From assembly GCA_964016885.1 (NCBI GenBank), contig OZ024740.1, positions 124,682,001 through 124,746,000 of the forward strand: DNA of 64,000 bases, written 5' to 3'. The stretch is from Eledone cirrhosa (lineage: Eukaryota). Under the pieces are notes generated by a model. It had not been told where the DNA came from. It was given only the letters and a program-made list of their open reading frames with translations, and ran no database searches. The position numbers were made by a program, and so were the translations under genes. Positions 15,487 to 64,000 of the stretch are shown here, one piece after another. Every line of letters starts with the position of its first letter. Within the stretch, counting starts at the first letter, position 1.

Positions 15487-15519
15487 GTCTCTACACTCTC
15501 CTTTGGCTCTGCCGCCCAC

Positions 15520-18500: not shown

Positions 18501-18917
18501 TGCCCTAGATGCGTGCGTCACGAAGAAACCGTTGCGCACGCATTGGTGCAATGTCCGGGCATGGCTGATCTGTGGGGCTACGCCGAACGACTGCTGTCGC
18601 GGGTGGCGCCGATTCGATTGACCGCCGAGTCCGTGATGACAATCAAACCGCCTCCCCTCTTCACAAAGGAAGCAAAGGCGGTTTTTCTGTGCGTAATAGC
18701 CATGTTGAAAGAGGTTGTTTGGTGGACACGATTGAAAGGTCTGAGGTCAGGCAACTTCCTCTCTGGCCATAGTCTGGTCTACTTCTTCCGATATCACTTC
18801 GGAAGAAGGATAAGAATGGAGAGAGAGGTGCTTGGCCACAGCCAGTTTTATGAAAGGTGGGTGATAGTGGCGAGAATGGCTCGTGTAAATGGGCCTTCTC
18901 TGTATACCATCCTGTAG
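15520..18917 (+). pseudogene. Tx1 ORF2 (APE + RT + zf-RVT) with about four frameshifts
   Basis: CLNARGL, ICETR, GDWN, YLDRF, TDHK, GYWKLN, RQGCPLS, AYADD, CPRC..HALVQC; frame breaks near 15750, 16015, 17372 and 17725. Confidence 0.93.
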
Positions 18918-21250: not shown

Positions 21251-21305
21251 ACTGCTATATATATTTCAGTGACAGCCATCTTTGGCTGTGACCTCTTCAG
21301 GCAGT
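21251..21305 (-). ncRNA. Minimal type I hammerhead ribozyme (inverted copy)
   Basis: Reverse complement of 21386-21440. Confidence 0.82.
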
Positions 21306-21385
21306 TTGAATTAGTATGGTATAGACAAGTACATATGTCATACACCTAAACAACATATGTACTTGTCTATACCATACTAATTCAA

Positions 21386-21440
21386 ACTGCCTGAAGAGGT
21401 CACAGCCAAAGATGGCTGTCACTGAAATATATATAGCAGT
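21386..21440 (+). ncRNA. Minimal type I hammerhead ribozyme
   Basis: ACTGC-CTGAAGA-GGTCACAGCCA-AAGA-TGGCTGTCACT-GAAA-T-ATAT-ATA-GCAGT; palindromic stem III loop, AUA triplet. Confidence 0.85.
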
Positions 21441-27835: not shown

Positions 27836-30800
27836 GTTGATGATTTTCCCTGCTTGCATGTTGGGACGGTTCCTATTCAGCACAGCATCTCTCCACTTGT
27901 CCTGCTTCTTCATCATCTTCTCTGTGAGCTTCAGCAATCTGACATCTGCTCTCACCACCTCCACCCATGTTTTTTGTAGTCTTCCTCTACTGCATCTTCC
28001 TTGGCACTTCTTTACCCAGCGGTCATGCTTTATTCATTGATATTAGTTGAAACAAATAATGAAATTATAACTGGTTTTTTTTTTACATATATATTTAATA
28101 AATGATTCATTTGGTTTTATGCAGTGTAAATTAGAACATTACACATCAAATTGTTTATATCTAAATACACCCACCTCATTCATCAGAGCTTTGATTAGAG
28201 TTTTCATAATATTAAAGAGTAAATCTTTGAGAGCATGGATCCTTTGTGGTAGCTTACACAACATATTTAATAGAAAACAATCAAATTCATTTCATTTGAA
28301 TGAATGGCTTATTTACCATACTCATTCTTAACTTTAGCTCAAAGAATTTGCTGCCTCCAAAATCTCAGGTGACAGAAGATATTTCTGTTTCATTCCAATT
28401 TGCCCTTTTACTAATAAAAACTTTTCTATTACTGAACAAAACTATCTTTTTGAGTAGTCTGTTTTCAATTCAAGAAACCGTATAGAAATAATGCACATTG
28501 GCTCAGAACACTTTAACGTAATGTAAATCTGAGATTGAAATGCAAATATTCTCAAATGGTTTAGATGTCATTGCTTGGTTCTCTACAACTAGCATATTTT
28601 GTGGAAAATCATTACCGAATATATTTTTAGATTCTTTTCTATCCATCAAAAAAAGTATATCTGTAGCTATACTGGAATCTTCAATTTTATCTTGCAGGCA
28701 ACTTGGTCAATTTTATCCAATAAAATAAATCTTTCCATAACCAAAGCAAAACTAGAAAATGTTGGTAACATTTATTTTGATGATAATGTACACTTCATAC
28801 TCTAAATTGCATGAGATATTGGGGCTAGTATCACACAACACTCACTTTTTAAACCTAACACATTATCAAATATTCTCAAATAAAGAATTACTGACTACTT
28901 CAATGGCAAAATAAAAATCTGTGTTTTTAGAGTGGAGAATTAATTATAAAAAGTATAATTAACTAGATATAGGTAATAAAGGAGCTTCTATGCACCCATC
29001 CAACATAAGAAAATTAGCAACAACATTTCTTTTAAATCATAACCTAGCATCTCAAAAATGGAAGTAAACACTGGTTAATGTAATCTCAGCTACAATATCT
29101 ATAAACAAGGTGAGGTTGTCACTGTTTGAATATCTTTGATCATACATCCTCAATCAAAATTGACCTGGGACCAGACAACACATACAATAGTTGCTGAGTA
29201 TACCTCCGTGATACTTGATAGCATTTCCATTTTATTTAGAATGAAATACATTTATTGCTTTTGAAACAACTACTGAAACAATTATATGATTTTGTCTCTC
29301 GTTTTTTATGTAAATATTTAGTACAAAAGTAATTTTTGGCAGTGGTTATTTGAGTAAGTTTTAGTGCATATCTGTCTAATAATTGTGTCGCTAATAGAAG
29401 TCTGAGATGACTGAGGAGTTACTTGGTCATCAATAGGTGTGACATCAATGCAAGTAGACATCACAACTGCAGAAATTGGCTTGAAGAAGGAATCATGTTT
29501 CAGTTGTTTACCTTGCTGATGTTGTTTCCACATAATATAATACCCTGGAGACTCTAGGATGTTGATAGTTTTGCTGAACATCAGTTTCTGTTGACAAGTC
29601 ATTGTATAGAATGGCATTCTCTAGAGATACTCATGTAAAGAAGAGAATCAGTTTTAGTTAACACATTTTCAATGAATTTATATATGAAATGTCTTACCAA
29701 CAAAAGATTATGTTTTTTAAAGAGTAATATGAAAACGAATAAGATAGACTTTTAAGTACCAGGCTGAATATAGATAGAAACATGCATGGAATGGAAGAGC
29801 TGTAAGAATTTTAATAGTAAAAAAATAGATGGTTATTATTTAGGAAAAAGTGTGGAGTGCTATAAAGAAATTGTGTAAAATTGAGTAAAAAACAGAATAT
29901 GTACTGGTGAAATATCTTTTGCATTTGGATATTATTTTTGTCACCACATTATCATTCCATCTGCTTTACAGATATCATGATACAACTAGCTGTAGGGAAT
30001 GTAATGCTATCTCAGAACAACAGCCAAACAATTTCATACTAGGATTTCATAGTAATTGGTATGCCATTCACTGTAACTGCTGTGACGAACTGTTTCCAAA
30101 TCATCATAGCAGTAACACTGGATGGTATGCTGTCTCTGAATCAAGTCCATTCTCTGTTTATGTTTGCCATAATTCAGTAATTGATTACTTAATCTTTGCA
30201 TTTTACAATTGATGATGTCACATTAAGTCTTATATCATGATCTGATCATGTAAGCAGGCTGTAGAAATATGTTTGCAAGATTAAAGGAATATTTAGAATC
30301 TAACCTTCTGTTTTCATTGAAGGATTTAACTTAGTTCCCACACCAACCACAAGACGCTGCATCTGCGGTGGATGATTTGCATCATGTTGAGTGCTTTTTC
30401 TTATTACATCATGATCTGTTAATCAGAAAGACCTGATATACCCATCAGTTAAACCTCTCAATATATATAGAGAATGAGAGGCATTAAGAAACCAACCAAA
30501 AATAGAGATTCATTTGAACAGGATGAGTTCTCTGGACCTAACATGACTTATAATGTGACAACCTGTCTATTCCATTCAAGACAACCCAATGAATATAGCA
30601 TCACCATTTAAAGTTTTCCTTTGCAAGCAAGGAAGCACTTCATCATATTCTCTGACCTCTTGAATAGGCCAGAATCTATATTCTGCTTATATAAATTCCC
30701 ATACACTATAGATTGCATTGGATGTGTTTTATTGTAACAGTGAATGCATTTATTATGTCATCAATACTAGGGAAGTCATCAAGTTTCTGAGATAACTGAA

Positions 30801-31039
30801 AGAGTTTTAAAAAGCCTTTGTTTAACATGTTTACCATAGTTAGATGTCCTTCTTATCATTAACCACTTTACAGACTGTATTGGGTTTGTATCAAAATGAC
30901 ACTAACAATAAGCATGTTGTCATGTCAACAAAAAGAGAGTCCTATCCATGAATTTTAGATATAGATTCTACAGCCGAATGTCCATTTTAACACTAACGAC
31001 TTTAAAGGGTGTATTGGGTGGATTTTATTGTGGCATCAG

Positions 31040-31073
<34 letters not shown>

Positions 31074-31074
31074 C

Positions 31075-31125
<51 letters not shown>

Positions 31126-31566
31126 TATATATTTATATATATATATATTTGAATTTATGTTAACTTAATGTTAACTTAATGAAAAATAGTCTAACAAGAC
31201 GGTTATTTAATTTGAAGCCTTATCAACCAGCCAGTGCATAAACAAACAATATACTTTTAGAAACATTGAGCAGGTTATACATTTTAAAAAGATTTATGTT
31301 AGCAGCTTCAACACACATTTTTTATTATAAAAATAGTCTAACAAGTTAGAGTATATAAGCCCTGGAGAGGGAAAAAAGTACACAGTATCACCCATGTGAA
31401 TCCAACTCACATCTGCCATATACCAGAGTGCTGTGCTTACCAATTGTGTTGCACCAATGCGAGCTTTACACATTTTTCTATTATTTAAACCTTGACTGAA
31501 TGATAAAGTTTAAAATAATGTGGTGCTGGTGTTGGTGTTGTTGGTGGTGCTGTTGGTGTTGGTAGT

Positions 31567-31567
<1 letters not shown>

Positions 31568-31627
<60 letters not shown>

Positions 31628-31629
31628 AT

Positions 31630-31676
<47 letters not shown>
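31568..31676. repeat. (TAG)n microsatellite
   Basis: Direct reading. Confidence 0.95.
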
Positions 31677-31677
<1 letters not shown>

Positions 31678-32518
31678 TTTGTGTGTGTGTGTGTGTATGC
31701 GAGTATGTGTGTGCATGCATGTGTTGGAATTCCATAGGTTAACAAAACCTGTGTTTGAACAGTTGAAATAACCAGATCATGAAATTAATGTGTGAGAGGC
31801 TCAACATTCCACAGACATCTATATCTTTAATGTTGTTCTCAAGGAGATTTACTGTGGCATAACGTCTACAAGGCTGGTACTTTGAGCAACAGAGTTGACT
31901 ATTTCTTGCCAGCTGAATGAACTGGAGCAAGATGAAATAAAGTGTTGTGCTCAAGGATACAACATGCTTCCAGGAATTGAACTTACTCTTGTGAGCCAAA
32001 CACCTTAATTACCAAGACATGTACCTTCACACTGCAGTATAGGTAACAACAGTAATGATAGAAACAACAACAGCAATAGCAATAACATTTTGTAATACAA
32101 ACAATAAAAGTAACTACAACATCAACGGGAACACAAATAGCTATAACAATAACTACAACAAAGATAACCAAAGCTAAACATTAATAACATCCATGAGAGA
32201 TTAAATAAGCACCTACTACAGCAATCAGCCCAGAGACACAAACAATGAAACTACTAATAAATTCAACAGCAATGATGAATGAATATGACAACAATATAAT
32301 AGTGACAATAACAACAAAACAAACAACAACAAAACATCAACAACAACAGCAAGGAGAAACCATTTGAAATTAAATAAATATACATCTATCATCATTATCT
32401 TGATGCTTATATTGTTTTGACAAGAATGGCAATATTAAAAAATGTTATGTTTGTATGTTTATATATACAAATATACAAATATACACATGCACACACATAT
32501 ATATACATTTATATATAT

Positions 32519-32581
<63 letters not shown>

Positions 32582-33489
32582 AATGTATATGTATATATAA
32601 ATATATATTTATATATATATATGTATGTATGAATATGTTGTGAGTGTGTGCATGAGTATGTGTGAGTGCTTGTGTGTTTATATATATATATATGTGTGTG
32701 CATATATATATTAACATATATATGTGTGTGTATATGTGTGTATGTAATTTTAAAATAATATTTAGAAAGGAAACTTTAAACAAATAAATGATCGAAAACA
32801 TAAGCAAATTGTCGAAAAGTATATATATATAAAAAATGAATTATCGAAATTATCAACGGAAAGAAATTATGGTAAACAAAAATATATTAAAGTTTCAAAA
32901 TAAATAAATATAGCTGGAAGATAAATATGGTGTCTCTTTAAGAAAACGTTAGGAAAAATAACTTGGCTAAGTGTGTGTCATGGTGTAGCAGTATATTGGT
33001 ACTTTTTTACTGCTTTCCATCATTAGTCAGCAGCCATGCTGATGCTCTACATTAATGTCAATCATACTGAACCCAAGATCTTATTCTTTTCAAGTGTGGT
33101 ACTTTTTTTATTGGTCTCTTTTTCATCGAACTGTTAAGTTATAGGGCATAAAAAGACAGATTTGTAAAACACTCACATGGGCAGATACACACAGACACAC
33201 ACACATCACATCATTTAACGTCCATTTTTCATGTTTGCATGTATAAGATGGGTCATCATGTTATCAGAAAATGCCGATCATTTGACCATGTCTTGCTCTT
33301 GTTGATCTGTATTTTGGGTTGGTTTCTACAGCTGAATGGTCTTCCAAAAGCCAATCATGTTACAGTGTTTATCGAGTACTTTTTGTTGTGTCACCATCAC
33401 AACCACATTACTGCATGGACTGGGTAGTTTGTTGTTAATGTACCGGATCAGCATACATAGAGTCTACTTAGTGTTTTGTCATGGTAACA

Positions 33490-34992
33490 TATTGAATGGC
33501 TTGTGAGAGCTATTCAAGTCATGTATAAAGAAACAGTCAGCGCGGTTAGAATTAACAACGAATATAGTGAAGAGTTTAGCGTAAAAGTTGGTGTTCATCA
33601 GGGCTCTGTTCTTAGCCCCCTCCTATTTATTATCGCCCTCCAAGATATAACAGAGGAGTTCAAGACAGCTGCCCATAGGAACTTCTATACGCAGATGATC
33701 TAACGCTCATAGCCGAATCAATGGCTGAAGTAGAGAAGAAATTCCAAACATGGAAGCATGGCCTAGAATCAAAAGTCCTTAAAGTTAACTTGTCTAAGAC
33801 TAAAGTCCTAATATGTAGGAAGAAGAATAGGGCACTGGTCCCATCTGGGAAATGGCCATGCTCAGTGTGTAGGAAAGGAGTAGGCAGAAACTCCATTTTA
33901 TGTCCCAAATGCAAAGTATGAGTGCATAAAAGATGTAGTGGGATCACAGGTAAGCTAACTAAGAATATAGATTTTATATGTGGCCGGTGCTCTGGTGCAA
34001 TAAGTAGCAGCAAATGCCCACAGAATACTAGCTCATTCCATTGCCCAGATGGTTCAATAGAAATAGTGGACACCTTCCGTTACCTGGGTGACAAAATCAG
34101 CAGTGGTAGCTAAAGTCTGAACGGGATGGAAAAAGTTCAGAGAGCTTATACCACTATTGGCCGCTTAAGGTTTCTCTCTAAAAATAAAAGGCAGGCTGTA
34201 TGATGCCTGCATACGAACAGCGATGTTACATGGCAGTGAGACATGGGCCTTGTGTGCAGAGGATCTACGTAGACTGGAGAGGAATGAAGCTTGCATGCTC
34301 CGTTGTATGTGTAATAGTAATATACGCGCACGGCAAAGCATAAATGAACTAAGGGAGAAATTAGGAATAAGAGGGATCAGATGCTATTTACTCGAGAGAA
34401 GACTACGTTGGTATGGTCACATGATGTGCATGAAAGATAACAGCTGTATAAAAAAAGTGCAGGGCGATCAAAATAGACGGTAGCTACAGAGTAGGCAGAC
34501 CCAGAAAAACCTGGGACGACTTGATAAAATCTGACCTCACACACTTACACCTCTCCAAGAAAATGTCACTGGACCGAGATCTTTGGCGCTACGTAGTAAT
34601 ACAGAAGACCCGCCTTGCTTAAGTACAAAGCGAAACCTACAGTCAGTAGGCACCTCTTAACCAAAATACACCCCGTCCACTACCCCTACCCCCACTGCCC
34701 TTTCGATGTAAAGCTATGTTTGTACCACAATATCCAGTCCTAAATAAATGAGGTCGTGTAGGTGTCACGACAAAAAAACACACAGTCCACGCTGTAATGT
34801 GGCCGTGTAGGTAACACGGTAAACCCTCCCAGTCCACACTGTAAACGTGGTTGGTGTTAGGAAGGGCATCCAGCCATAGAAAATCCACCAGACAGTCCTG
34901 AGCAAGACAACCAATCTTGCCTCAAGTGGGACAATTCCTGTCCAGACCCATGCTAGTGTGGAAGATGGACGTTAAACGATGATGATGATGAT
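33490..34992 (+). mobile_element. 5'-truncated RTE LINE (RT with embedded PHD-like finger, 3'UTR)
   Basis: GVHQGSVLSPLLF, LYADD, KVNLSKTK, CSVC..CPKC..HKRC..CGRC, FRYLGD, MLHGSETW, RRLRWYGH; (GAT)n tail. Confidence 0.9.
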
Positions 34993-35047
34993 ATAAATGA
35001 AATGAATACAAAGAGTTTAAAACCGTTAGAACATGTTTATATAATAG

Positions 35048-35090
35048 TGCGCCTACGTACGTTTCGCCCGGAATGGGCTTATCAAGGGCA
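35048..35090 (-). ncRNA. Degenerate minimal hammerhead motif
   Basis: TGCCC-TTGATAA-GCCC-ATTCC-GGGC-GAAA-C-GTAC-GTA-GGCGCA; two transitions in the CUGANGA box, probably inactive. Confidence 0.6.
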
Positions 35091-35173
35091 TGGAAAGCAA
35101 AATAATTATCAATATAGGACCCAGGAAGGAATTCACGATTAAATTAACAATCCACCGCCCCAGTTATTTTATA

Positions 35174-35352
35174 TAATTGTTTCTACTTTAGGCACAAGGC
35201 CAGCAATTATCCAGTGCATTACTGGTACTTTATTTTATCGACCCCGTAAGGATGAAAGGTAAAGTTAACCTCGGCGGGATTTGAACTCAGATCGTAAAGG
35301 GACGTAATGCTACTGGAAAGCATGGCATCCGACGCTCTACCGATACTGCCAA
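35174..35352 (-). mobile_element. tRNA-derived SINE (same family as 26521-26696)
   Basis: A and B boxes and shared central domain. Confidence 0.82.
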
Positions 35353-35934
35353 TAATGATATTAAAACAGAAGTTCATGTGTAAAAATGAAAGAGTACAAT
35401 GCATCAATGTTCATATAAATATGTTATACAAATGTTTATGCATCCATGTTTATTAAGTGAGTTGTATATAGAAGCTGTGTTATATTGTGTTGTTAATTAT
35501 AAAAGTTAAAAGCAGCTATAGTGAGAAGCTTGGATACAAGGAATACACCCCACCTACACAGTAGTTTACCAGAAAGAAAGTAATCTGGTTCAATCTATTT
35601 CATATATGTGCAGACATTAACATAACCATAAATATTTTTCTAATATATACCCATTCACTACTTATGCATAAAATACACTTCAGCACTAATGAATTAAGAT
35701 CAGCCCTTCTTGTTTGAATGACATTGCTTCTCAAATCTCCCACAACAACCAAAGATATATATATGCCCAGGTAGCTTCCATCCCAACAATCAATTTGCAA
35801 CTATAGAACCCCCCTCACACTTAGTCTACCTGTTTAAAGGATCATGTTTCTCTAGTGTGGTGGTATATAGAAGTCTCAAGTCTTAAGTCTGTCTCAAGCT
35901 TGGAGTCTCATCAGACCAATTTCCATGGCATTAA

Positions 35935-36265
35935 GCAACTGATAGTACAAAGACTCCTCCTGGAAAGGACACCAATTAATTGCAGAGTTAACCCCCCAGC
36001 TATTGCTGGTACATATTTTCAGCTGAGTATACTGGAGCAATGTGAAATGAAATGTTTTGCATAAGATCACAACACACAACTCAGTCCAGGCATCGAACCC
36101 ACAACATCCTGTGTATGAATGGTCATACATTCTATTGAGTGCAGAGGGGAAGTTGTCATGTCTTTTGACACAAACTGTAGGGTCCTTCCAATCCATTTGT
36201 TTGGTAAGCTTTCTACAGCTGGATGCCCTTCCTAACATCAACCAATTTACAGTGTGTACTGGGTG
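35935..36265 (-). mobile_element. Degenerate CORE-like SINE pieces
   Basis: GGTTCGATGCC B box, CORE-like segment and AGGAAGGGCATCCAGCTGTAGAAA motif. Confidence 0.55.
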
Positions 36266-39200
36266 CATGTCTCATGTAGATCACCAGCATCAGGGTGGTT
36301 GTCATATCCTTGACACAACTGAATGCATTTCCAGGCAATACAAAAGAAACTCATTTACCCTATATTGTCTCCAGTCATTTGTTTACTGATGATATAAATT
36401 ATTCATCTCATTCCTGGCAAGAATAAGAGGGACATACCTTTCTTGAATTATGTCCATTCATTCATTTCTTTCTTTCCTACACAGCTGGATATCTAGAAAG
36501 AATTATATTCCTCACAACACCAGTATCTAGGTAGAGCAGTCTATGAATTGGGTTAAAGAGTGCTTCCTACAGTCCAATATAAAGTCCTCTCCCCCACTAA
36601 CATATTTTTTTTATTCTTACTGCTCATAGATCACCCTGTTAAACTTGATGCCATGAGAGAGGTTAGCAACTGGAGGTACATAAAGTATGTATATAATGGT
36701 TGCATCTGTACTAGTCCCTAGAGTTAGCATACAAAGGAAATCAAATTAAAATTGACATGAAAATGTTGTTACATAAAATAGAGTTTTAGTTTGTTTTTAT
36801 TGTCTCAAAATAATATTTTTTTCCTCTTTAGCCTCAGTTTAAATGAAGGTATAAGATAACAAATATAATATGTTGGTTAATGTTAGAGCAGCAAAGCAAT
36901 GTCAGTTTCTTTTGTCTTCGTTGTCATGACTCGTGACAATGATCTCATTAACCTTTCTATATAGCATCTAGGAGCCAAAATAAGAATCTTTTTACTCATT
37001 AACTAATGCAACAAAACAACTGGTCATAAAGGAAAAGGCCATAGGTAACAATAGTGTGGGATTAATGGGCTTGAAGCAGCCAATAAAATATGCCAAACCC
37101 TTTTTCTTGATTGAGCCAGATTTATCTTCAAAATTTGAAAATAAAAGTTATTTGTTTCTGTTTCTCTCAAGGATATTAACACAGGAGATGAAAACCACAA
37201 GATAAGAATTGCTGCCAAAATTTCAGCCCAGATCATACAATAACAATAGCTTGCAAACAAGATAAATGAAACATTTCCATCAAGCACATTTTAACTGACT
37301 TAAATTCATTAAAAGCCTTTATGTTCAAATTTGAACCAATGCCATATTTTGTTGCAAGATTAAAATAGCAACTTTTTGAATTTTTTATCTTACTACAAAT
37401 AAATCAACTTCAGTTTGTTGTAAACTAATTCAATGAAATAACACATTTTAAAACTTTCTGTTTTATTTCAGTGTTGTACCTGCTTAGAAATTGATATGAT
37501 CTGAGATTGTATGTTGAAAGTGAAACAATTACATTGTGGAAGAGTCATAGTAGACATTTAAACACACATAAAGTTACATATTTATTTCTTAAGTGTCAAA
37601 CAGTTTTGTATACACTAATTTGGGTTGTGTCATGATTCTACTGTGACCATTGTTAGTCACATACTGGTCTGTTTTTATAAGATTTCTTTTATTGTTTCTA
37701 TATATATTTCCTTCAATTCCTTTATTCATTTAAAAACAAAACAGTTTCCAATTTAATCTTTAATAAAATATTGTTTGTTCACTAGCTTCCCATCAATGGT
37801 AAAACCTTTGTTCATATTTTTCAATGTAATGCTACAATCCACTATTGAAATAAGGTTTCTTTAAAATGCTTGAATCTCTTTGAAATAAAGTTTTCTTTAA
37901 AGTTTTCTTAAAGTCTTCTGATCAATGGTACATCCAGTATTGAAATAAAGTGTTATTTTAAAAATTAATTTGACATCCTTGCTATTTCCAATATGCATAT
38001 TGTAAAAAGATGATAGCTTTAATTTAAGTTCCTGTTCAAAATGAAATATTTTTTCATTTCTTTCTCCTCTTTCTGATATACATAGTCTTAGCTGATTTAA
38101 TAGACAAGAGTTACTTTTCTTTCATTCTTTTGTATTTGTTTAGCAATTCTTTTTCTGTGAAACCATGAGTTGCAACAAATATTGTTGTGTACTGCAAGGC
38201 CCACTTTGACACTTAAAAACGAGCACATGGGCTGTAGTTCACAATTTTATTGTTAGTCTAATTCATAATTATTAGCTAACTTCTTAATACGCTTGTTAGA
38301 AATGTTTCATCATTCACCCTATTCCAGAATTAAATGCTCTCAGTTCTCTTTGTAAAGTGGTAGCTTTGGTTCCATGAGAAAAGGCACATGGTTGGCGATA
38401 GGATGGTCATCCAGCCATAGAAACTATGACAAAATATGGAACATATGAGCAAGATGTCGTTCAATTTCATGCTGTGTTACTCCATATAAACCATGCCAGT
38501 ATTGAAGGCAGACACAAAATAATGATGATGATATTGATTACAATGATGATCATAAATCATTTGACTTTATCATTCTGACGAAAATTTTCTGACAAGCTTA
38601 TTAAGATGTTTGAACAAACAATAAAGAATAAACCACAACTAATGCAGGTATTGTAATTGTCAAAATTACCTTACCAAAATACAATGATTTTCAATCAATC
38701 ATTATGGTATACTTAAGTTTGGAATCCTTTTACAATTAGATCACTTCATTTTACATAAAATGTACATGAAGAAATTTCACATGACAACTGGTGACTGGAT
38801 TTGAAGAGAGAACAGACTTTCAATCCCAAGCATAAAATACCTGATTTAAACCTTTTGATATTAAATTAACAGGAGCTGCCCATGGTTAAACAGTACAAAG
38901 CTGTTTATTTTGAAATGTTTATAGTTATTTAGAAACCTTCCATCATAAATTTATGTATGAACGTTTGTTAAGACCAGCTTAATAGAGAGAGTCTATTATA
39001 TAATTAAATCCCTACAAATTGTTGATTAATTTCAAAATGATTTGAAAATTCTAGACAGTAAAATATTAAGGGCTTCTTTAAAATAAAAGGTAATTAAATA
39101 ATTAAAGGAACCATCAAATATATCTCTCCAAGATATATAGTAACTGAAAAATAGCTTTCTTAGGCCCTTAACTAAGTTGTAGGTGCACCATAATGATATA

Positions 39201-39904
39201 TGAATTTAACATGGTGATTTCATGTATTGCTGGCTCTTATATTTTTACTTTTACTTCTAAGGTAATCTTGGAGTGGAAACAAATATGCTCAATAGGAGTC
39301 ATTGAGCTATACAATCAAAGACATTATATTATCATCATTATCAGCAATGACAACAAAGAAAGGAAATGTTAACACTAAAGAAACTTTTAAAAAGCTTTTT
39401 GGCTAGATGAAATTGTATGAAGATATTACATATTTAAATATCAACAAATGTAAAACTTATATCATTTTTATGTCCTCTATTTCATGCTTACATGAGTGGA
39501 ATAAGTATTCATCAGTAGAGGTTTTCCTCACTTGTTTTGTTCCTTCATCATCTCCTCATTGAGGTTTTGCATTTTGTGTTCAGCTCACACCCCTCCTGCA
39601 CATATTTTCCTCTATATTTCTCTTCTACAGCTTCCTTTCATTTGGAAGGCCTGGCACTTCTTCACCCTCTAAAAGACATATTGGAAAGAATTCTAAGCAG
39701 CTACAGAGTGAATCAACAGCTTTGTAAAAATATATGTATAAAGATATTTATTCTCTTGTGTAGTTCAAACATAAAACTGTAGCCATGTTGGGGCACAAGC
39801 TTGAAGGAATTCAAGCAGAGTTACAAGTCATACAATAATGACAAAATTAAACACACAAATTACACACACATACGATCACACACACACACATACATACATA
39901 TATC

Positions 39905-40465
39905 ACCATCATCATCATCATTTTACATCTGCTTTTCCCAGGTCCTATTCAGCACAGCATCTCTCCACTTGTCACAGTCCTTCGTCATCTCCTCGGTGAG
40001 GTCTGCTCTGACCACCTCTGCCCATGTTTTTCATGGTCTACCTCTACTGCATCTTGCTTCTACTGGGATTTCTTGGCACTTCTTTACCCAGTGGTCATCC
40101 TCCATGAATAACACATGTCCATACCATCTCAGCCTTCTCTCCTGCACACCACAACTTATCCTCTTATACCCAGTTTCTTTCTCCACTCATCTATGCTTGG
40201 TTGTTCATGCACATTGACATTGCACATCTAATGGAGCATACTTGCTTCATTTCTCTCCAACCATGGCATATCTTCTACAGTTGCTGCCCATGTCTCACTA
40301 TCATGCAGCATTGCGCATCTCACACAGGCATCATATAACCGTCCATTCGTATGCAGGGAGAAAGCCTTCATTGTCAACAGAGGAAGCAGCTCCCTAAACT
40401 TCTTCCAACCCGTCCTTATTCTAGATACAATGGCCTCTGAACACCCCCCTCCCATGCTAATCTGA
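39905..40465 (-). mobile_element. RTE LINE 3' fragment
   Basis: RIRTGWKKFRELLPLL...MLHDSETW...WLERNEASML; same family as 27285-27835. Confidence 0.82.
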
Positions 40466-40813
40466 TCATATATAATAAGGTTCTGCATAGTTTACATCTA
40501 TCAATTTTAACTCACAAAGCATTGGTCAATCCAAGGTCCATGCTATATGTCTGTTTCAAAGCAACAAATATGCCTCAAGACTAAATGTTTAACCTTAAAC
40601 ATTTCATACCTCAAAAAGTCAACTTTATTATTTTATATTACTTATTAGTTTAGAACTCGTAAACAAATCTTCAACAAGTCTTACCATACCATCTTAAACT
40701 TGAAGAATACATTGGATATTGTTGTTCTCGATACACAGATACACTATTGGGGGAATCGTGGCATAATTTTAGCTGGAATGTCTATTTACTCTGAATAAAC
40801 TTGGGTCTAAATA

Positions 40814-40865
40814 TAGAAGAAGAAGAAGAAGAAGAAGAAGAAGAAGAAGAAGAAGAAGAAGAAGA
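40814..40865. repeat. (AAG)n microsatellite
   Basis: Direct reading. Confidence 0.95.
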
Positions 40866-43800
40866 GAGCAACATCAGCAATAAACTCGAATTCATTTTGA
40901 TTTTATTGTAATTTGGATGTGGAATTAAATTGGGTTAAATTTTTGACCTTCTTTCCTGATGTTTAGAGGGCATTTATTTTACAAATTGCCTTCCCATCTT
41001 GTTGATCGTCTGCGGAAAATATTATCAACAAATTAGATTTCATTGTCAGCCATCTTGATAAAAATGAAATAGCAAAATCATTTTTTTTTTTTATTTTTTA
41101 AGTTGAGTAGAGTCAGATGCAGATGATATTGAAATGTTTTCGTTTGTAGATGGAGAAATATGATAATATTGGGAAATATATAAAATGATTACTGGGATAA
41201 TTTCAACAGAAATTATTGTTTATTTCTTTACTCTCTTTGTATATTTGTTTAATTTTATTGTGTGTGTGCATGGTGTGGTGTAGTGTGGTGTGGAGTGTGT
41301 GTGGTGTGTGTGTGTGTGTGTGTGTGGTGTGTGTGTGTGTGGGGGGGGGTGTTTGTGTGTGTGTGTGTGCGTGTGGGTGTGGGTGTGTGGGTGTATGTTT
41401 TCATCTGATAATATTGCTAGTTGCAATGATGTGGATATTGTTAATGGTCATGGATGTGGTGATGATTGTGGTAGAGGCAGATGTGTTATATTAGTACTAG
41501 TTTTAAAAGTTGTGATAGTGATAGTGATAGTACCATCAATGATTCTGATGATGGTGGTGGTGGCAGGCAGCAGCTGTGGTAATGGAGATGGTGGTGTTGA
41601 AATGATGTTGGGAAAGTGGATGAGAATAAGTATTGTGATTGTGGAGGTGGTGATAGTGGTAAAAGATTGCAAGGATGATTGTAATAGCAACATGTTTGCT
41701 CTGGTGGTACAGAGTTTTGCTTTAGGTCATGGTATTTAGTAACTTCCATTCGTATAAAAGGATAAATAAATATAACATTATCTACATTTAAGAGTCTGGT
41801 GAGTATTTCAGTTAGTTTAAATTTTGAATGGATAATATTCATATCTATGTTTAATTATTTCTTCTATCTTCTGTACTGATTTCTCTTTGCATCTCTAAAT
41901 CCATTTCTATGAGAGTGGAGTGAAATAAGTCCATATGAAAATTCTAAGTATACTGTGGTCTACACTTACCAAGATTCCTTGGAAATGAAAATTTAAAATA
42001 TTCAAAATAAGTACAAGCATAAGAAATTTTCCTTTGGCCACTGACATGGATGTGTAGTTCAAGTGTATGCTTCACAACTATATATTTTAGAGTTTAGTCC
42101 CAATACCTGGCATATTGGGAAAATGTCTTCTAATGGTAATGGTACACTAAATAACATCAACATTTAGTTTTATCTCACTCTACTGTGAGGTCAAACTACA
42201 TCCAAGCCCCACTTTGCATTTCTTTCTTCTGTGTAGATAAACTGATTTCTAGTAAATTCCCAGAGTCAATTCAACCTATTAACCACCTTTCCTGTAGAGA
42301 AATTGGCATTGTGTCATATCATCATTTTCATCGTCATTTTTACGTCCGCTTTTCCCTGTTTGCAAAGGTGGGATGGGAACTGATTCTGGCTTGATTTCTA
42401 CAGCTGGATGCCCTTCCTAACACCAATCTCATTTACAGTACTGGCAATGCTCCCACGATTTCTCAAAGACCTGCTGCAGTCTATTTGGTTTGTTGTACTG
42501 CATCCAAGGTGAAAACAATTGTTCGTCAGCTTACATGGACTCAAGATCCTTCATTATTAGAAGTTATTTGTAAATTAGAGGCAGTGACTTTAATTTGGCA
42601 TATAGGTAACAAAAAGTTTAAAGCTAATTGAAAACTATATTTCTAAAATGTTTTTTTAATGGTTATTTTCTTTTGCCACATTATCTTTAATCTATGCAGA
42701 ACATTTCATTAATGACAACACTCCAGCTGTTTAATTCATTTAGGTATCTCTGTCACTCCTTTAAGCTGCTGTTTATCTTCCTGTAATTAACTTCAACTAA
42801 CAAGCTTCTTTTGTATTGCTTTTTGTAAATAGATTTAGAAACTACAAAAAATTATTAATTAATTATTTTAAATCATCTTTTTAGAGGTATTTTTTGTCAT
42901 TGTTATTTTTTCTTGATTATCAAATTATGTTTTATTGCTCATTTCTTCAAGGCAGTATACATTTTGAATCCAGATTATTTCAAAGCTATCACTGTATTGT
43001 CACTTGGAAATATTAATTAGTGTATAAACAGCTCAGTGTTAGTGTCTGCAATTGAATCCTTATACCTTATCTCAGAAATGTTTATAATAGTACAATATAT
43101 TTTGTTCACTTAGTTAATTAAAAGGGCATGCCCAATGACCATCGTTGAAACACCATCAAAGATGGTATTCTCAAGTTGTGTATAAAAAACAAATTGAACA
43201 GGCTGGGAATATTATGCTCCACGTTATTAGATAGGGTATGATATTACAAATATACTGAATAACTTCAATGAACTGGCTTAACAAAGAATCACCCCTGAAT
43301 TGAAGCTTTAGATGATTTGAACTAAACAATTGTCAGTGCTTTTACTGAATTAAGTTATTGGCATTTCAATTTTAAGAAAGCTTCCTGTTGTAGCAAACAA
43401 GAGCTAGAAAAATAGTTTATAGACCATGTGATGTTGTTGTTTAGTCCTCAGTCTTTTCTGAATGAGTATATCTATGATCAAAGGTGTTCCAGCCATGTTC
43501 CTTGTGTCTTTGGTTTTCCTTGTTTGACCACTAAATGGGATCTCTACCCCACCTGGTGTTCTGGCCAGAGTGTGATGAAGTAGCCTATGTTCATGCTCTT
43601 CTAGCCCCTTTCTCCATGGAGGTCAGCTGAGGGATTCCAGAAGGGCGCTGCTCAGACATCCCTGGTTCTGCTGAGCTCTATTGTTGTTTCATTCCTGTGG
43701 AAAGCGACCCTATTTTCTGACTTGCCTGAGTTGGTTTGCTTCACTACAGGAGAAGTGGACAAGAGTTTAAAGGTTTTAAGAGGTTACTTATGCTTGACCT

Positions 43801-54678: not shown

Positions 54679-54716
<38 letters not shown>

Positions 54717-54976
54717 GGAAAAATGAAACGAAATTTCGTTTCACACTCTTAGTACGGCTGTTACTTAAATATAAGTATGTACACGTACATACATATATGT
54801 ATACAGAAGAACAGTAGTATGTATATATATATACATACATGCACACATATATATATGTACGTATGGATTCACCGAACATTTATTATAATGCTCGGTGTGT
54901 TTGTAAACAAACATCCCGTATTAAGCCGTAGTGTCTAGCAACCATCGTTGCTCGTTTGTTCAACACTGACAAAGGA

Positions 54977-55019
54977 ACGCTGTACTAGTTTCAAGCTTAT
55001 TAGCTATCGTCAGCAACGT
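54977..55019 (-). ncRNA. Type I hammerhead ribozyme (family A)
   Basis: ACGTTG-CTGACGA-TAGCTAATAAGCTT-GAAA-CTA-GTA-CAGCGT. Confidence 0.9.
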
Positions 55020-55398
55020 ATACCTTCCTGCCAGATTGTTGAACGTATATATTTACCTTATGCATATTAACAGCTGAGTAGCCCAATTTGCATATCGTGT
55101 GGATTAATCGGCCGGGTGCACCGAAAACGATAAACGGAAAAAATGAAACGAAATTTCATTTCCCACACTTAGTACGGCTGTTACTTAAATATAAGTATGT
55201 ACACGTACATACATATATGTATACAGACGTACAGTAGTATGTATATATATATACATACATGCACACATATATATATATGTACGTATGGATTCACCGAACA
55301 TTTATTATAATGCTCCGTGTGTTTGTAAACAAGCATCACGTATTAAGCCGTAGTGTCTAGCAACGATCGTTGCTCGTTTGTTCAACACACACAAAGGA

Positions 55399-55441
55399 AC
55401 GCTGTACTAGTTTCAAGCTTATTAGCTATCGTCAGCAACGT
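55399..55441 (-). ncRNA. Type I hammerhead ribozyme (family A)
   Basis: Same motif, 422 nt from the previous copy. Confidence 0.9.
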
Positions 55442-55657
55442 ATACCTTCCTGCCATATATATATGTGTGCATGTATGTATATGTATATATACATAATACT
55501 GTACGTTTGTTTACAAACACACAGAGCATTATAATAAATGTTCGGTGTATCTATACGTACATATATATATGTGTGCATGTATGTATGTATATATATATAT
55601 ATATATATACATACTACTGTACGTCTGTATACATATATGTATGTACGGGTACATACT

Positions 55658-55700
<43 letters not shown>

Positions 55701-55833: not shown

Positions 55834-56136
55834 ATAATATATAAGATCAAAAGATGGTTAAAAGAGTTCCATGTATTTTATTATGCGCATTTCAAAAACA
55901 AATAGAGCAGTTTTAAATCAACATATATTGATTTAAAACTGCACTATTCACAAGTGTTTTTTAACATTCATATCATGTCTTCCTATTTTATCTGATGAAA
56001 ACACAAATATTATTGCATGATGATATTTGTTTTTGAAATGCGCATAATAAAATACATGGAATTCTTTTAACCATCTTTTGATCTTATATATTATGTATAC
56101 TCCAGTCCTGCAAACTGTAGAAAACTTTAAAAAAAT

Positions 56137-56182: not shown

Positions 56183-56188
<6 letters not shown>

Positions 56189-58142
56189 AGAAGCAAAAAA
56201 TTGCTTATTGTGATCCAGTTCGTGGTTAAGAAAGCCAGTTTCATGGATGGTTTCAACGCACGGTTAGGGGTAACTCCACAAGTAACTCCAGAAGTATCTA
56301 AGTTTATACAATTTGACATTAACGATTATTACTCATCTATATCCCCCAACACCTTGGATAAAGCCTTAGCATTCGCCAAATCCAATTCTGACATAACAGA
56401 CGACGAGATAAAAATCATATTAGCTGCTAGGAAAACAATAATTAAATTTGAAAACGCCTATTGGGAACGTAAGGATAGATTAAATAACTTTGACATCACG
56501 GTGGGGGCTAACGACTCGGCTCAAGTCACAGACTTAGTAGGTATTTACATAGCCCATAGTTTACAAAGCGAGTTTAGCGACCTTCACGGTGGAATCTACA
56601 GAGACGACGCCCTTCTCCTAGTTAAGAACCTAAATAACCATTGCATAGAAAGACTCCGTAAGAATATTAGAAAGACTCTCGGAAAACTAGACCTTAGCAT
56701 AACGTACAAGTATAGCACTAAAACATTTAACTTTCTAGATGTGACGCTTAACCTAAATACGGGACTTATAAGACCTTTTCACAAGATTAATGAAAACTTA
56801 GCATACATCAACTGTAACTCAAACCACCCACTATCTATAATTAAATCCATTCCACGCAACATATCCCTTAGGATCTCCCGCCTCTCATCTAACCGGCAAA
56901 TCTTCGAAGAACATGCAGAATACTACAATACCGCATTAGACAAGGCAGGCCACTTAGATAGAGTAGAATATATAGATGAAAGCCTCTGTGAAGCACACAC
57001 GAACACGCATAACACAAACTCCAGAAACACACGCATACACACATTTACGCATAGAACTGCAAAGTATACGGCTAATAGAAGTACAACATCGAAATCAAAC
57101 AAGTCACGCAGTAGAAAATATATTTGGTATAACCCTATATTTAACACCTCTATTAGTACTAACCTACCCTCTACTTTCTTTAGAATAATAAATGGGCACT
57201 TTCCAGATTCACATAGATACAGCAAAATCCTTAACACTAAATCTATTAGACTATCCTACTCCACGGCACCAAATATAGAAGCACACATTAAGATGCTTAA
57301 CGCTAAAAAGATACATAACAACACCAAAACACAAATTTACAACAATAACAATACAATTACCACCGAACACAACAGAATATCTAATACACAACCACCCGCT
57401 AATAGGCAAACAAAACGTAACACTCTTGTTCAGGCATCGCAGCCCACAAATAATGCCAAAGTTGCCCATAACAAGAAATGCAACTGCCACCTACCTGAAA
57501 CCTGTCCATTACAAAATGAATGTATGCAGTCTAACCTGGTTTACCAATGCACAGTGGAATCAGACAACCAGAAATGGTATTACATCGGAGCGACTGGGAA
57601 TACTTTTAAAGCTCGTTGGTATACACACCGTTACGCAATGAAACATTCCCAGCACCGTTATGTAACTACCCTTGCAAACAAGACCTGGCAACTGAGGGAA
57701 AGTAACCATCAATACACCCTGAAGTGGAAAAAATTATCAAACGCGCCCCCATATCGGAGTGGTATGAGAAGCTGTCGATTATGCGACCTTGAGCTGTTCC
57801 ACATCTTAAGTTCGAAGAATAGGTTACTCAACAATAAAATTGAGAGATCAATTTATTGTAACCATTGACTCAAAGAGAAATTTTCGCACTACAAATCGAA
57901 CACTTAACCTCTTACTACCAACTGACAAACTGCATATACTTAGACTTTATACCCTCTTATATCTAGACCCTTTAATTACCCACAAAACCAATTCATATAT
58001 CCCCCCTTCTCCCCCATTCCTCTTCTATTTCTTCGTTTTCTTCCTTCCTTCCCCCTTCTTGGCTATCTTTTCTTTTCTTCCTTCTCACCCCCTTCTTTGC
58101 TTTTATTTTTGTCATTATTATCTTTATTTTATATTTTTTATT

Positions 58143-58175
<33 letters not shown>

Positions 58176-58182
58176 ATGTATG

Positions 58183-58235
<53 letters not shown>

Positions 58236-58263
58236 TTGTGTGTGTATATATATGTATGTGTAT

Positions 58264-58307
<44 letters not shown>

Positions 58308-58796
58308 CTCTTTATATCTCCCCCCCCCCACCTCTCTCTCTCTCCCTCTCTATCCATCCCTCCCACTATTATCTATTTAATTCTCTTTAACTCACTACAC
58401 TCCACGACATGATGTCTGCTATCAAAACTGACCAAAGAATCCTTCCACCTCTACCCCTACCTCCACCTCTACCCCTACCTCCACCTCAGTTTGTCATTCT
58501 ACTTCCTACCTCTTCCCCCTTCCTCTCTCTCTCTATACTATGCCGTCTGTCCCCCCACTTCCCGATTCCTCTCTCTCTATACTAGTAAATACAATTCCAA
58601 ATAAATGTTTTTCTCTATATATTAAGAACTATTTTAAGAGTAACTCACTATTTTGAAAATTTGGACTGTGAACAACAATTATAATTGAGTGGCTGCTATT
58701 TGCAGTATAGCAATATAAGGTTGCACTTACCAATGAAACGGTCGTAAATACCTGGATTAAACCCTTCTCTTAATGCTTACCTGTGTTTTCTCTTTT
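56183..58796 (+). mobile_element. Penelope-like retroelement insertion in (TA)n, Hydra-clade-like
   Basis: (TA)n at both ends; pyrimidine-rich 3' region with internal microsatellites; clade assignment from motif recall only; 3' boundary uncertain. Confidence 0.65.
56201..57868 (+). CDS. Penelope-like element RT + C-terminal GIY-YIG endonuclease, 5'-truncated (homology starts ~56290)
   Basis: FIQFDINDYYSSI, GANDS, GIYRDD, FNFLDVTL, SNHP, CNCx5C, LVYQC..YYIG..FKARWYTH, CRLC..CNH; no internal stops. The first ~30 codons are probably not element-derived. Confidence 0.9.
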   Translation: MLIVIQFVVKKASFMDGFNARLGVTPQVTPEVSKFIQFDINDYYSSISPNTLDKALAFAKSNSDITDDEIKIILAARKTIIKFENAYWERKDRLNNFDITVGANDSAQVTDLVGIYIAHSLQSEFSDLHGGIYRDDALLLVKNLNNHCIERLRKNIRKTLGKLDLSITYKYSTKTFNFLDVTLNLNTGLIRPFHKINENLAYINCNSNHPLSIIKSIPRNISLRISRLSSNRQIFEEHAEYYNTALDKAGHLDRVEYIDESLCEAHTNTHNTNSRNTRIHTFTHRTAKYTANRSTTSKSNKSRSRKYIWYNPIFNTSISTNLPSTFFRIINGHFPDSHRYSKILNTKSIRLSYSTAPNIEAHIKMLNAKKIHNNTKTQIYNNNNTITTEHNRISNTQPPANRQTKRNTLVQASQPTNNAKVAHNKKCNCHLPETCPLQNECMQSNLVYQCTVESDNQKWYYIGATGNTFKARWYTHRYAMKHSQHRYVTTLANKTWQLRESNHQYTLKWKKLSNAPPYRSGMRSCRLCDLELFHILSSKNRLLNNKIERSIYCNH

Positions 58797-58847
58797 ATAT
58801 ATATATATATATATATCAACTAGAAATTGGATATATATATATATATA

Positions 58848-60206: not shown

Positions 60207-61534
<1,328 letters not shown>

Positions 61535-61923
61535 TCCTGCATTGAACCACCTAGGTACTATGACATAACCTGTGTATTTGCTGGCATGGGCGTGCATCTG
61601 TGCGCTTATGTTAGTTGATATATTAAATTATCTATATTTATCTCCAAATCACTGATTTGTCGAGCAAACTTGTCAAAACCACTTCTAAAAAAATTTTTTT
61701 TTTTGGGGTGTTAGTAGGCGTCAGTCATCTTACCATCCCATTCCTTCTAACTAGCCTCTGTGTCACGTGATTGATTCTTTAGAATCGGCCATTTGACTTG
61801 AAGCAGTGAGAATTTCGGTACATAGAATTCAGTCCTCGCAAGCTGTTCGATCTACCGAATTATTATTATTTTTATATGAGCCGCCAGTGTCCGCGCATTG
61901 CCTGGAGACTTAACTGAGAATAG

Positions 61924-62005
61924 ACTTCCTGATGACGCAATGAATTCTCGACAGTTGGATTACATAACTGTCTTTATCCCATTGCAGAAACTAATTAGTT
62001 GGAGT
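61924..62005 (+). ncRNA. Type I hammerhead ribozyme (family C)
   Basis: ACTTC-CTGATGA-C-GCAATG..GACAGTT..AACTGTC..CATTGC-A-GAAA-CTAATTA-GTT-GGAGT; palindromic ACTAATTAGT stem III, GUU triplet. Confidence 0.87.
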
Positions 62006-62022
62006 GAAAATTTAAGTAAGAA

Positions 62023-62063
<41 letters not shown>

Positions 62064-62509
62064 ATTTTTTTAAAAAAATATTTTCTTATTTTACGTCCTT
62101 TATATTATTGTTCTGCATTCTCCTGCATTGAACCACCTAGGTACTATGACATAACCTGTGTATTTGCTGGCATGGGCGTGCATCTGTGCGCTTATGTTAG
62201 TTGATATATTAAATTATCTATATTTATCTCCAAATCACTGATTTGTCGAGCAAACTTGTCAAAACCACTTCTAAAAAAATTTTTTTTTTTGGGGTGTTAG
62301 TAGGCGTCAGTCATCTTACCATCCCATTCCTTCTAACTAGCCTCTGTGTCACGTGATTGATTCTTTAGAATCGGCCATTTGACTTGAAGCAGTGAGAATT
62401 TCGGTACATAGAATTCAGTCCTCGCAAGCTGTTCGATCTACCGAATTATTATTATTTTTATATGAGCCGCCAGTGTCCGCGCATTGCCTGGAGACTTAAC
62501 TGAGAATAG

Positions 62510-62591
62510 ACTTCCTGATGACGCAATGAATTCTCGACAGTTGGATTACATAACTGTCTTTATCCCATTGCAGAAACTAATTAGTTGGAGT
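62510..62591 (+). ncRNA. Type I hammerhead ribozyme (family C, second unit)
   Basis: Same motif 586 nt downstream. Confidence 0.87.
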
Positions 62592-62609
62592 GAAAATTTA
62601 AGTAAGAAA

Positions 62610-62651
<42 letters not shown>

Positions 62652-62690
62652 TTTTAAAAAAATATTTTCTTATTTTACGTCCTTTATATT

Positions 62691-62731
<41 letters not shown>

Positions 62732-62998
62732 ACATATATTTATAAATATTTATATATATATACATTTTATATATATAAATACATTTATATATAAGTATGT
62801 ACACGTACATACATATATGTTTACCGACGTACAGTAGTATGTATATATATATATACATACATGCACACATATATATATGCACGTATGGATTCACCGAACA
62901 TTTATTATAATGCTCGGTGTGTTTGTAAACAAACATCCCGTATTAAGCCGTAGTGTCTAGCGACCACCGTTGCTCGTTTGTTCAACACTGACAAAGGA

Positions 62999-63041
62999 AC
63001 GCTGTACTAGTTTCAAGCTTGTTAGCTATCGTCAGCAACGT
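62999..63041 (-). ncRNA. Type I hammerhead ribozyme (family A)
   Basis: ACGTTG-CTGACGA-TAGCTAACAAGCTT-GAAA-CTA-GTA-CAGCGT; the next copy (63425-63458) is cut by the inversion. Confidence 0.9.
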
Positions 63042-63624
63042 ATACCTTCCTGCCAGATTGTTGAACGTATATACTTACCTTATGCATATTAACGGCTGAG
63101 TAGCCCAATTTGCATATCGAGTGGGTTAATCGGCCGGGTGCACCGAAAACGATAAACGGAAAAAATGAAACGATATTTCATTTCCCACTCTTAGTACGGC
63201 TGTTACTTAAATATAAGTATGTACACGTACATACATATATGTATACCGACGTACAGTAGTATGTATATATATATATATATACATACATGCACACATATAT
63301 ATATGCACGTATGGATTCACCGAACATTTATTATAATGCTCGGTGTGTTTGTAAACAAACATCCCGTATTAAGCCGTAGTGTCTAGCAACCACCGTTGCT
63401 CGTTTGTTCAACACTGACAAAGGAACGCTGTACTAGTTTCAAGCTTGTTAGCTATCGTACTAACAGCCGTACTAAGAGTGGGAAATGAAATATCGTTTCA
63501 TTTTTTCCGTTTATCGTTTTCGGTGCACCCGGCCGATTAACCCACTCGATATGCAAATTGGGCTACTCAGCCGTTAATATGCATAAGGTAAGTATATACG
63601 TTCAACAATCTGGCAGGAAGGTAT

Positions 63625-63667
63625 ACGTTGCTGACGATAGCTAACAAGCTTGAAACTAGTACAGCGT
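63625..63667 (+). ncRNA. Type I hammerhead ribozyme (family A)
   Basis: ACGTTG-CTGACGA-TAGCTAACAAGCTT-GAAA-CTA-GTA-CAGCGT; predicted cleavage after 63661. Confidence 0.92.
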
Positions 63668-64000
63668 TCCTTTGTCAGTGTTGAACAAACGAGCAACGGT
63701 GGTTGCTAGACACTACGGCTTAATACGGGATGTTTGTTTACAAACACACCGAGCATTATAATAAATGTTCTGTGAATCCATACGTGCATATATATATGTG
63801 TGCATGTATGTATATATATATATACATACTACTGTACGTCGGTATACATATATGTATGTACGTGTACATACTTATATTTAAGTAACAGCCGTACTAAGAG
63901 TGGGAAATGAAATATCGTTTCATTTTTTCCGTTTACATTTATATATATATATATATATTGCAGGGTAGGCTGCTCGCTCGGTGAAATGTAACGTACTAAT

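Follow-up and report, generated by a model that had tools for sequence, protein, structure and literature searches.

The closest described systems are the non-LTR retrozymes of animals and the endonuclease PLEs, for which the sections covered of the published papers are cited here. Animal non-LTR retrozymes (PMC7229834; 10.64898/2026.07.22.740005) consist of tandem non-coding units with one type I hammerhead each, are low in GC and occur alongside PLEs; they have been argued to be non-autonomous PLE derivatives (10.64898/2026.07.22.740005). Circular RNA templates have been proposed (PMC4209133; PMC7229834). PLE-type hammerheads are weak cleavers in vitro (PMC4209133), and 8 of 9 Xenopus retrozyme dimers failed to cleave (10.64898/2026.07.22.740005). 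Endonuclease PLEs (PMC3846280; PMC8557442; PMC11167929) show 5' truncation, tandem and inverted arms, TA targets, a tail at one end only and two internal start sites. The one-end tail of inverted PLE insertions was described as an optional feature of 30-40 bp (PMC3846280; PMC8557442) and later tied to the two internal start sites of the PLE protein; the purified protein, predicted to form a dimer, cuts and extends both strands and uses two internal RNA start sites (PMC11167929).

The window, that is, the whole stretch of 64,000 nt of Eledone cirrhosa DNA that was analysed, contains a repeat, family C, whose copy here lies directly against an array of another repeat, family A (Table 1). A first-pass annotation had reported a near-identical head-to-tail dimer of a 586-nt unit, and alignment of 61535-62120 with 62121-62690 bears out the dimer: the first ~490 nt are identical save for one base where the T tract begins, and all differences are confined to the T tract. 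The second copy ends at unit position ~570 and is followed by (TA)n, giving an insert of 1.97 units. The length of 586 nt holds for this locus but not for the family; among 102 full units taken from 39 loci, lengths run from 552 to 586 nt and 560 is the majority value, and the unit at the dimer locus is the longest of the 102 because its T run has expanded. Nor is the element a "long" retrozyme, as had been suggested, since 586 nt is unremarkable beside published family consensus lengths of 51-972 bp (10.64898/2026.07.22.740005), although the C unit is longer than the 170-400 nt retrozyme RNAs tested in 2020 (Cervera and de la Pena, PMC7229834). The long T run is present in the dimer as described, but it is a slipped homopolymer specific to this locus. 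A role as poly(A) tail or terminator was ruled out, since the run is internal, variable and absent from the older subfamilies. Double cleavage at the dimer is predicted to give a 586-nt monomer, a geometry that fits this locus, with a family monomer of ~560 nt. At the dimer locus TTT is a possible 3-nt target duplication, indistinguishable from a start 2 nt further on.

Table 1. Positions of the features discussed, numbered from the first nucleotide of the window
Feature	Position	Strand	Remarks
5'-truncated autonomous PLE	56185..58800	+	RT + GIY-YIG frame 56189-57868; short inverted arm
Older family A arm	60726..61535	+	432-nt period, units 87% alike; own hammerhead at 60786; own downstream end site
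Family C unit 1, 586 nt	61535..62120	+	ragged 5' edge of insertion; one T shared with family A
Family C unit 2	62121..62690	+	stops at fixed end site S1 (~62688-62690), the inferred reverse-transcription start
Type I PLE-style hammerhead 1	61924..62005	+	read from sequence and covariation; predicted cleavage after U62000
Hammerhead 1, stem I	61924-61928/62001-62005		ACUUC/GGAGU
Hammerhead 1, core CUGAUGA	61929-61935		extra C 61936
Hammerhead 1, stem IIa	61937-61942/61980-61985		extra A 61986; GAA 61987-61989
Hammerhead 1, palindromic stem III ACUAAUUAGU	61990-61999		U17 = 62000
Hammerhead 2	62510..62591	+	identical to hammerhead 1; predicted cleavage after U62586
Predicted monomer RNA from double hammerhead cleavage	62001..62586	+	
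Expanded internal T run of family C unit	62027..62059	+	second copy 62614-62655; locus-specific slippage
Family C "tail"	62105..62223	+	~120 nt from S1 (62104) to S2 (62223)
CTCC-N(3-14)-RYYGAR motif	62120..62133	+	16 nt after S1
Second motif copy	starts 62228 and 61642	+	5 nt after S2
(TA)n-rich target tract	62689..62793		displaced from family A 3' end

A 29-mer taken from the hammerhead has 2,113 exact matches in the genome against 0 for its reversed control, and family C is therefore a repeat and not a chance occurrence. A similarity search of the species' own 3.0-Gb genome gave 158 matches at 98-100% identity among the 40 scored of 608 candidates, and the copies are dispersed over many contigs, as recent mobility would leave them. 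The proposal of a young, multi-copy family is upheld by these counts, and the multi-unit arrays at dispersed loci show that the dimer is not an assembly duplication. Older subfamilies have units of ~530 nt, are ~70% identical and are without the T run. Relatives are carried by contigs from runs of four organisms (covering unit positions 1 to ~465), and one contig of another organism crosses the unit junction. In the 557-nt family unit the longest open frame is 55 codons and GC is 36%, so that the repeat is non-coding and low in GC; folded as a circle, this unit is better than shuffles (z -4.7, 40 shuffles). The ends of the insertions run into TA repeats and, on that basis, are not of LTR type. 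Judged from its sequence, family C is a young non-coding retrozyme-like repeat of roughly two thousand near-identical copies, and at the DNA level it agrees with the definition of a non-LTR retrozyme in the sections covered of 10.64898/2026.07.22.740005. A literature search returned no description of family C; supplements of papers, which lie outside such a search, may list the family or its hammerhead variant.

Each unit had been said to carry an intact hammerhead with a two-part stem II and a 10-nt palindromic stem III. Both hammerheads are present and have these stems, but their core departs from the canonical one in three places: an additional C follows A9, an additional A stands between C11.1 and G12, and the cleavage site is GUU (H17 = U). 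When those positions were freed in a pattern search of the species' own genome, the extra C, the extra A and U17 were kept in 1,365 of 1,409 matches, a count conditional on an ACUUC stem I, which misses the ACUCC subfamily. Type I hammerheads stand in at least two consecutive units (251 hammerheads, 74 loci), and the three departures are found in all of the 251 but one, where they are shifted by an insertion in stem III. Since they are family-wide, the hammerhead is of the PLE type and not canonical: it has C3-A9, G12-A15.1, U16.1, H17, an extra base after A9, the G10.1-C11.1 pair and a palindromic stem III, all features of the minimal PLE hammerhead, whereas A9 and G12 do not directly flank the closing pair of stem II as in the canonical type I description (which also called for a 6-bp stem I and a 4-bp stem II). 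A 2017 paper on PLE hammerhead variants reportedly may cover the second extra base. With the PLE minimal hammerheads of PMC4209133 that of family C shares the extra nucleotide between A9 and G10.1, the G10.1-C11.1 pair, a long stem II, a 5-bp stem I and a palindromic stem III suited to dimers; it goes beyond them in the second extra nucleotide (A) between C11.1 and G12, which is absent from the sections covered of that paper, in the 10-nt palindrome and in U17. The hammerheads of animal non-LTR retrozymes are, in contrast, canonical (PMC7229834; 10.64898/2026.07.22.740005).

An Rfam scan of the 64-kb window gave 0 matches at the gathering score. The hammerhead region by itself has only a modest folding advantage over shuffles (z -1.5); it is covariation that supports the ribozyme. 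In 22 distinct hammerheads 95.6% of cells are paired and 6 pairs are changed on both sides; the covariation score was 0.194 against 0.075 and was reached by 0 of 500 shuffles, and slid controls gave 0.005-0.051. The sequences compared are related, and the pattern used to pick them holds the core, stem III and part of stem I constant; only stem II is therefore informative. Stem II is kept by compensatory changes across the subfamilies, a pattern which indicates that the family C ribozyme is under selection. Set against an active ribozyme is the MFE fold, in which the hammerhead core is mispaired. The palindrome ACUAAUUAGU can pair between two copies, with a computed duplex energy of -9.0 kcal/mol. 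Four single-copy changes (loci L035, L036, L038 and L063) cluster at unit 456-460, within the palindromic stem III, more densely than elsewhere; this is perhaps a hot spot of RT error or of assembly.

Further hammerheads were seen in passing. At window 55992-56060 (+), with an inverted fragment at ~55875-55900, there is one with CUGAUGA, a long stem II, the palindrome AUGCGCAU and an AUA-like site; it is followed by an ATG resembling the start of the young PLE ORF described below, recurs in L105 and L112, and is probably either the terminal repeat of a PLE or one more non-autonomous family. A hammerhead-like motif at window 21300-21430 (CUGAAGA, palindrome AUAUAUAU) stands on both strands as a small inverted insertion. 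Other unrelated hammerhead families, some canonical-looking, occur in L207 (~2320-2370, +), L118 (119 and 430) and L033 (1999, -). The non-LTR retrotransposon RT frames with an upstream ORF at window 6479-9119, 12214-12977 and 13657-18917 are ordinary LINE-like copies.

The outer 3' ends of family C insertions fall at two fixed sites ~120 nt apart, S1 at unit ~570 and S2 at ~103 of the next unit; each runs into (TA)n, and both sites are also used in the ~70%-identical older subfamilies. The 5' ends vary in position, some of them clustering in the T tract, and no arm among the scored insertions begins at unit 461-475, where the cleavage site lies. In a set of loci chosen by score, 24 of 39 are head-to-head inverted insertions and 23 of the 24 have one S1 arm and one S2 arm; in a set of 35 young loci chosen by position, the same was true of all 19 scorable inverted insertions (L210 and L212 were left out as unscorable). 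The exception is L059, with two S1 arms. Since the 15 non-inverted insertions use both sites (9 end at S1 and 6 at S2), a coin toss was taken as the null, and by simple arithmetic 42 of 43 inverted insertions with one arm per site would then have a probability of ~5e-12. Family C shows the insertion anatomy of PLEs in its 5' truncation, tandem and inverted arms, one-end tail and microsatellite target. Two junctions are odd: the 5' junction of L047 has a mirror copy of flanking target DNA, and at the inversion junction of L035 a piece of the unit, ~18 nt long, is present in four stuttered copies. Each has the look of a slip in priming or re-priming.

The units of one insertion also resemble each other in a way that bears on the template. 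Of 31 informative insertions, 28 have no marker site at which the two arms differ, whereas permuting the arms leaves 4.3 such insertions (maximum 11 in 3,000); the three discordant ones, L048 (a tie arising from alternation), L066 (a mosaic) and L215, differ by one marker each. Site distance between units is 0.97 within a locus and 2.77 between loci (0/5,000 permutations), and locus-private variants are fixed in every unit, 12/12 in L037, 8/8 in L059, 7/7 in L043 and 4/4 in L038. In L048 two linked variants alternate unit by unit (period 2) in both arms, as expected if a dimer had served as template; L039 and L031 also look period-2, but only in the lengths of their homopolymers, and were not counted. 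The arrays cross the cleavage site 266 times; 257 of these passes are exact, and the junction itself is unchanged in all 266. This speaks against a template of cut linear monomers with repeated jumps from one to the next. A homogeneous source array, read as an uncut multimeric transcript, would likewise yield one haplotype per insertion. The best reading is that a circular template explains all of these patterns, and that an uncut multimer from a homogeneous source explains most of them and needs an earlier bottleneck.

The motif CTCC-N(3-14)-RYYGAR occurs exactly twice per unit in family C and in three PLE families, just 3' of the end sites. Its chance expectation is 0.05 per C unit, for a motif that was defined after the sites were known; it was later found before the ORF of a fourth PLE family, and the second end site of the L107 PLE family is placed by position only. 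The motif likely marks the binding place of the enzyme. Since it is common to several PLE families it does not name the helper of family C, and it is described as sequence only, because the start-site regions, when folded, had no significant structure in common (z from -2.7 to +0.9).

The genome is rich in PLEs, with about 30,000-43,000 first-look candidates, and the families examined are four of many. A contemporary intact PLE is present: a young family adjoining L044 has dozens of copies at 99-100% identity and an open 738-aa RT-GIY-YIG frame, with a hammerhead upstream of the ORF that has a palindromic stem III, and with TA targets. Its two end sites are 87 nt apart, and 8 of 9 clean inverted insertions have one arm of each kind, a count that omits two unclear ones. 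This PLE is a candidate helper for family C. At L168-L169 (G000:C7:78450000-78468000) there is a tandem trimer of an intact 4,011-nt PLE of this young family, its units 99.9-100% identical, which is likely an active source element. The truncated PLE within the window belongs to an older family (up to 95% aa identity between copies) and has one arm at each of its own two end sites. Pfam assigned no family to either the window protein or the young one; we take both to be PLE proteins from their RT, CxC-CP and GIY-YIG motifs. A BLAST search for homology of C to the terminal repeats of autonomous PLEs gave no significant match in the three families tested, and the matches of C to the young PLE and to one older PLE family were of low complexity only.

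From this sequence evidence we think it probable that family C is a non-autonomous retrozyme mobilised by a PLE, one RNA, likely a circle, being copied from two fixed start sites at once. An array would be transcribed by read-through; its hammerheads would cleave as dimers held together by the palindromic stem III, and ligation would give monomer or dimer circles. The GIY-YIG nuclease would cut both strands of a TA tract, and two RT subunits, bound to the two CUCC..YGAR elements, would prime at S1 and S2 and each copy a variable number of rounds. The two cDNAs would then be joined head to head, or a single arm would be joined to the target; the dimer locus would represent a single S1-primed arm, landing where the terminal TA tract of family A begins. 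Put more specifically, and here only as a tentative suggestion, a PLE dimer may grip one ribozyme-made circle at its two CUCC..YGAR elements while the subunits roll independently, the circle sometimes being a dimer, in a two-headed rolling-circle reverse transcription. Circularisation at the cleavage site restores the head-to-tail sequence of the array, so back-junction reads in RNA-seq cannot test for the circles.

The same twin-site insertion by a PLE could instead draw on an uncut linear multimeric transcript, the hammerhead being slow or used elsewhere and the homogeneity inherited from the source. Hammerhead cleavage is indeed dispensable for PLE insertion in vitro, uncut RNA being the main substrate (PMC11167929), and such a template would suit the non-canonical core of the C hammerhead and the near-identical trimer formed by the autonomous 4,011-nt PLE; it predicts equally well that the cleavage site should show neither stops nor scars. 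It still requires a bottleneck of one or two units somewhere if private variants are to be fixed in up to 12 units and an array is to keep a strict period of 2, and the preservation of stem II by compensatory changes also counts against it, so that we consider an uncut template unlikely, if quite conceivable. A further proposal removes the second RNA start site, the inverted arm coming from fold-back self-priming of the first cDNA or from an antisense template. Fold-back has been put forward for PLE inversions (PMC3846280), would explain the shared haplotypes of the arms, and agrees with the near-symmetric junctions of L201 (181/181), L218 (130/130), L194 (389/391) and L050 (436/438). In 21 of the 43 inverted insertions, nevertheless, one arm exceeds the other by over 600 nt. 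The arms are therefore not mirror copies, which argues against simple fold-back; either arm may be the longer, most junction positions differ between the arms, and the use of S1 or S2 on either strand would be left unexplained. This origin of the inverted arm seems improbable.

How the dimer came to lie against family A can be judged separately. The direct fusion at 61534/61535 is real, with one shared T, and had been put down to template switching or nested insertion by a shared RT. Insertion of A and C in one event, by template switching of such an RT, would account for a direct fusion at the natural end site of A and for A and C hammerheads of similar build. However, the A unit next to the dimer matches the best of its other copies at 94-95% identity (40 scored of 4,153 candidates), whereas the dimer matches its own at 98-100%, and the two therefore arrived at different times; as the A units here are also only 87% alike, A is the older. 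There is no homology between A and C, and of 16 non-inverted 5' junctions of family C 11 adjoin a TA-rich repeat and only the dimer locus adjoins an A end. Origin in one event is thus very improbable. Family A runs to the 3' end site natural to it, after which TA repeats follow elsewhere; here its TA tract is found on the far side of C, as expected of a nested insertion. The simple reading of the fusion would be a later nested insertion of C and not a template switch, and both families target TA tracts, including tracts left by earlier insertions. The call that C is unrelated to A stands for the sequence (best E 0.16) but not for the hammerhead, which in A has the same build, and the shared RT is not borne out, the start-site motif of C and the PLEs being unseen in the A copies inspected by eye. 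Growth of C at the DNA level, by unequal crossover after a solo terminal repeat, or duplication in assembly, deserves next to no credence: local amplification has been suggested for vertebrate retrozymes (10.64898/2026.07.22.740005), but here the insertions are dispersed over 74 loci, their 3' ends fixed, their 5' ends ragged and their inverted arms multi-unit, and the unit junction is crossed in another organism too. The family A arrays at 62790-63940, 54700-55670 and 60230-61535 have two fixed end sites ~60 nt apart and hammerheads with C-A or U-U opposed atop stem II; the inverted array at 62790-63940 has one arm of each end kind.

The preferred reading, a PLE-mobilised retrozyme copied from two start sites, places family C within a class of element that is already known. 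It is like the animal non-LTR retrozymes in its tandem non-coding units with one type I hammerhead each, its low GC, its company of PLEs and a length within their range; RNA circles have been shown for those retrozymes and are proposed here for C, and an analysis of end sites, inversions and haplotypes as given here for C is absent from the sections covered of PMC7229834 and 10.64898/2026.07.22.740005. With the endonuclease PLEs it shares the 5' truncation, the tandem and inverted arms, the TA targets, the tail at one end only and the two internal start sites, but it has no ORF, its tail is ~120 nt and not 30-40, and both of its arms are multi-unit; the tail that is "optional" in PLEs is near-obligatory in C on exactly one arm (42/43). 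There is TATA microhomology at both ends of C, whereas the Anolis PLE starts at non-homologous sites (PMC11167929). Like non-autonomous Chlamys elements such as MRC1 (PMC8557442), C is probably a non-autonomous partner of PLEs, and it forms multicopy head-to-tail insertions. The 3' end of elements of the MRC1 type is like that of their autonomous partner, and hammerheads are missing from most Chlamys elements (PMC8557442); C carries a hammerhead, and no partner homologous to it came to light among the PLE families tested.

What C adds is the counted, near-obligate pairing of two start sites, the long tail, the evidence for a single template and a contemporaneous intact candidate helper. The route by which PLEs make tandem and inverted insertions, and the movement of retrozymes through RNA circles with the aid of PLEs, are stated as open in the sections covered of the literature, and for both questions C offers genomic evidence that can be counted, namely one arm per start site, one template per insertion and a period-2 array. 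If the mechanism is true, a hammerhead variant with a C-A opposition atop stem II and a GUU site would be active, and two-headed rolling-circle reverse transcription would explain the tandem, inverted and one-sided-tail structure of all PLEs by one mechanism. Since one genome supplies both a non-coding template of 560 nt and the protein of a young, intact PLE, the rolling-circle model is directly testable.
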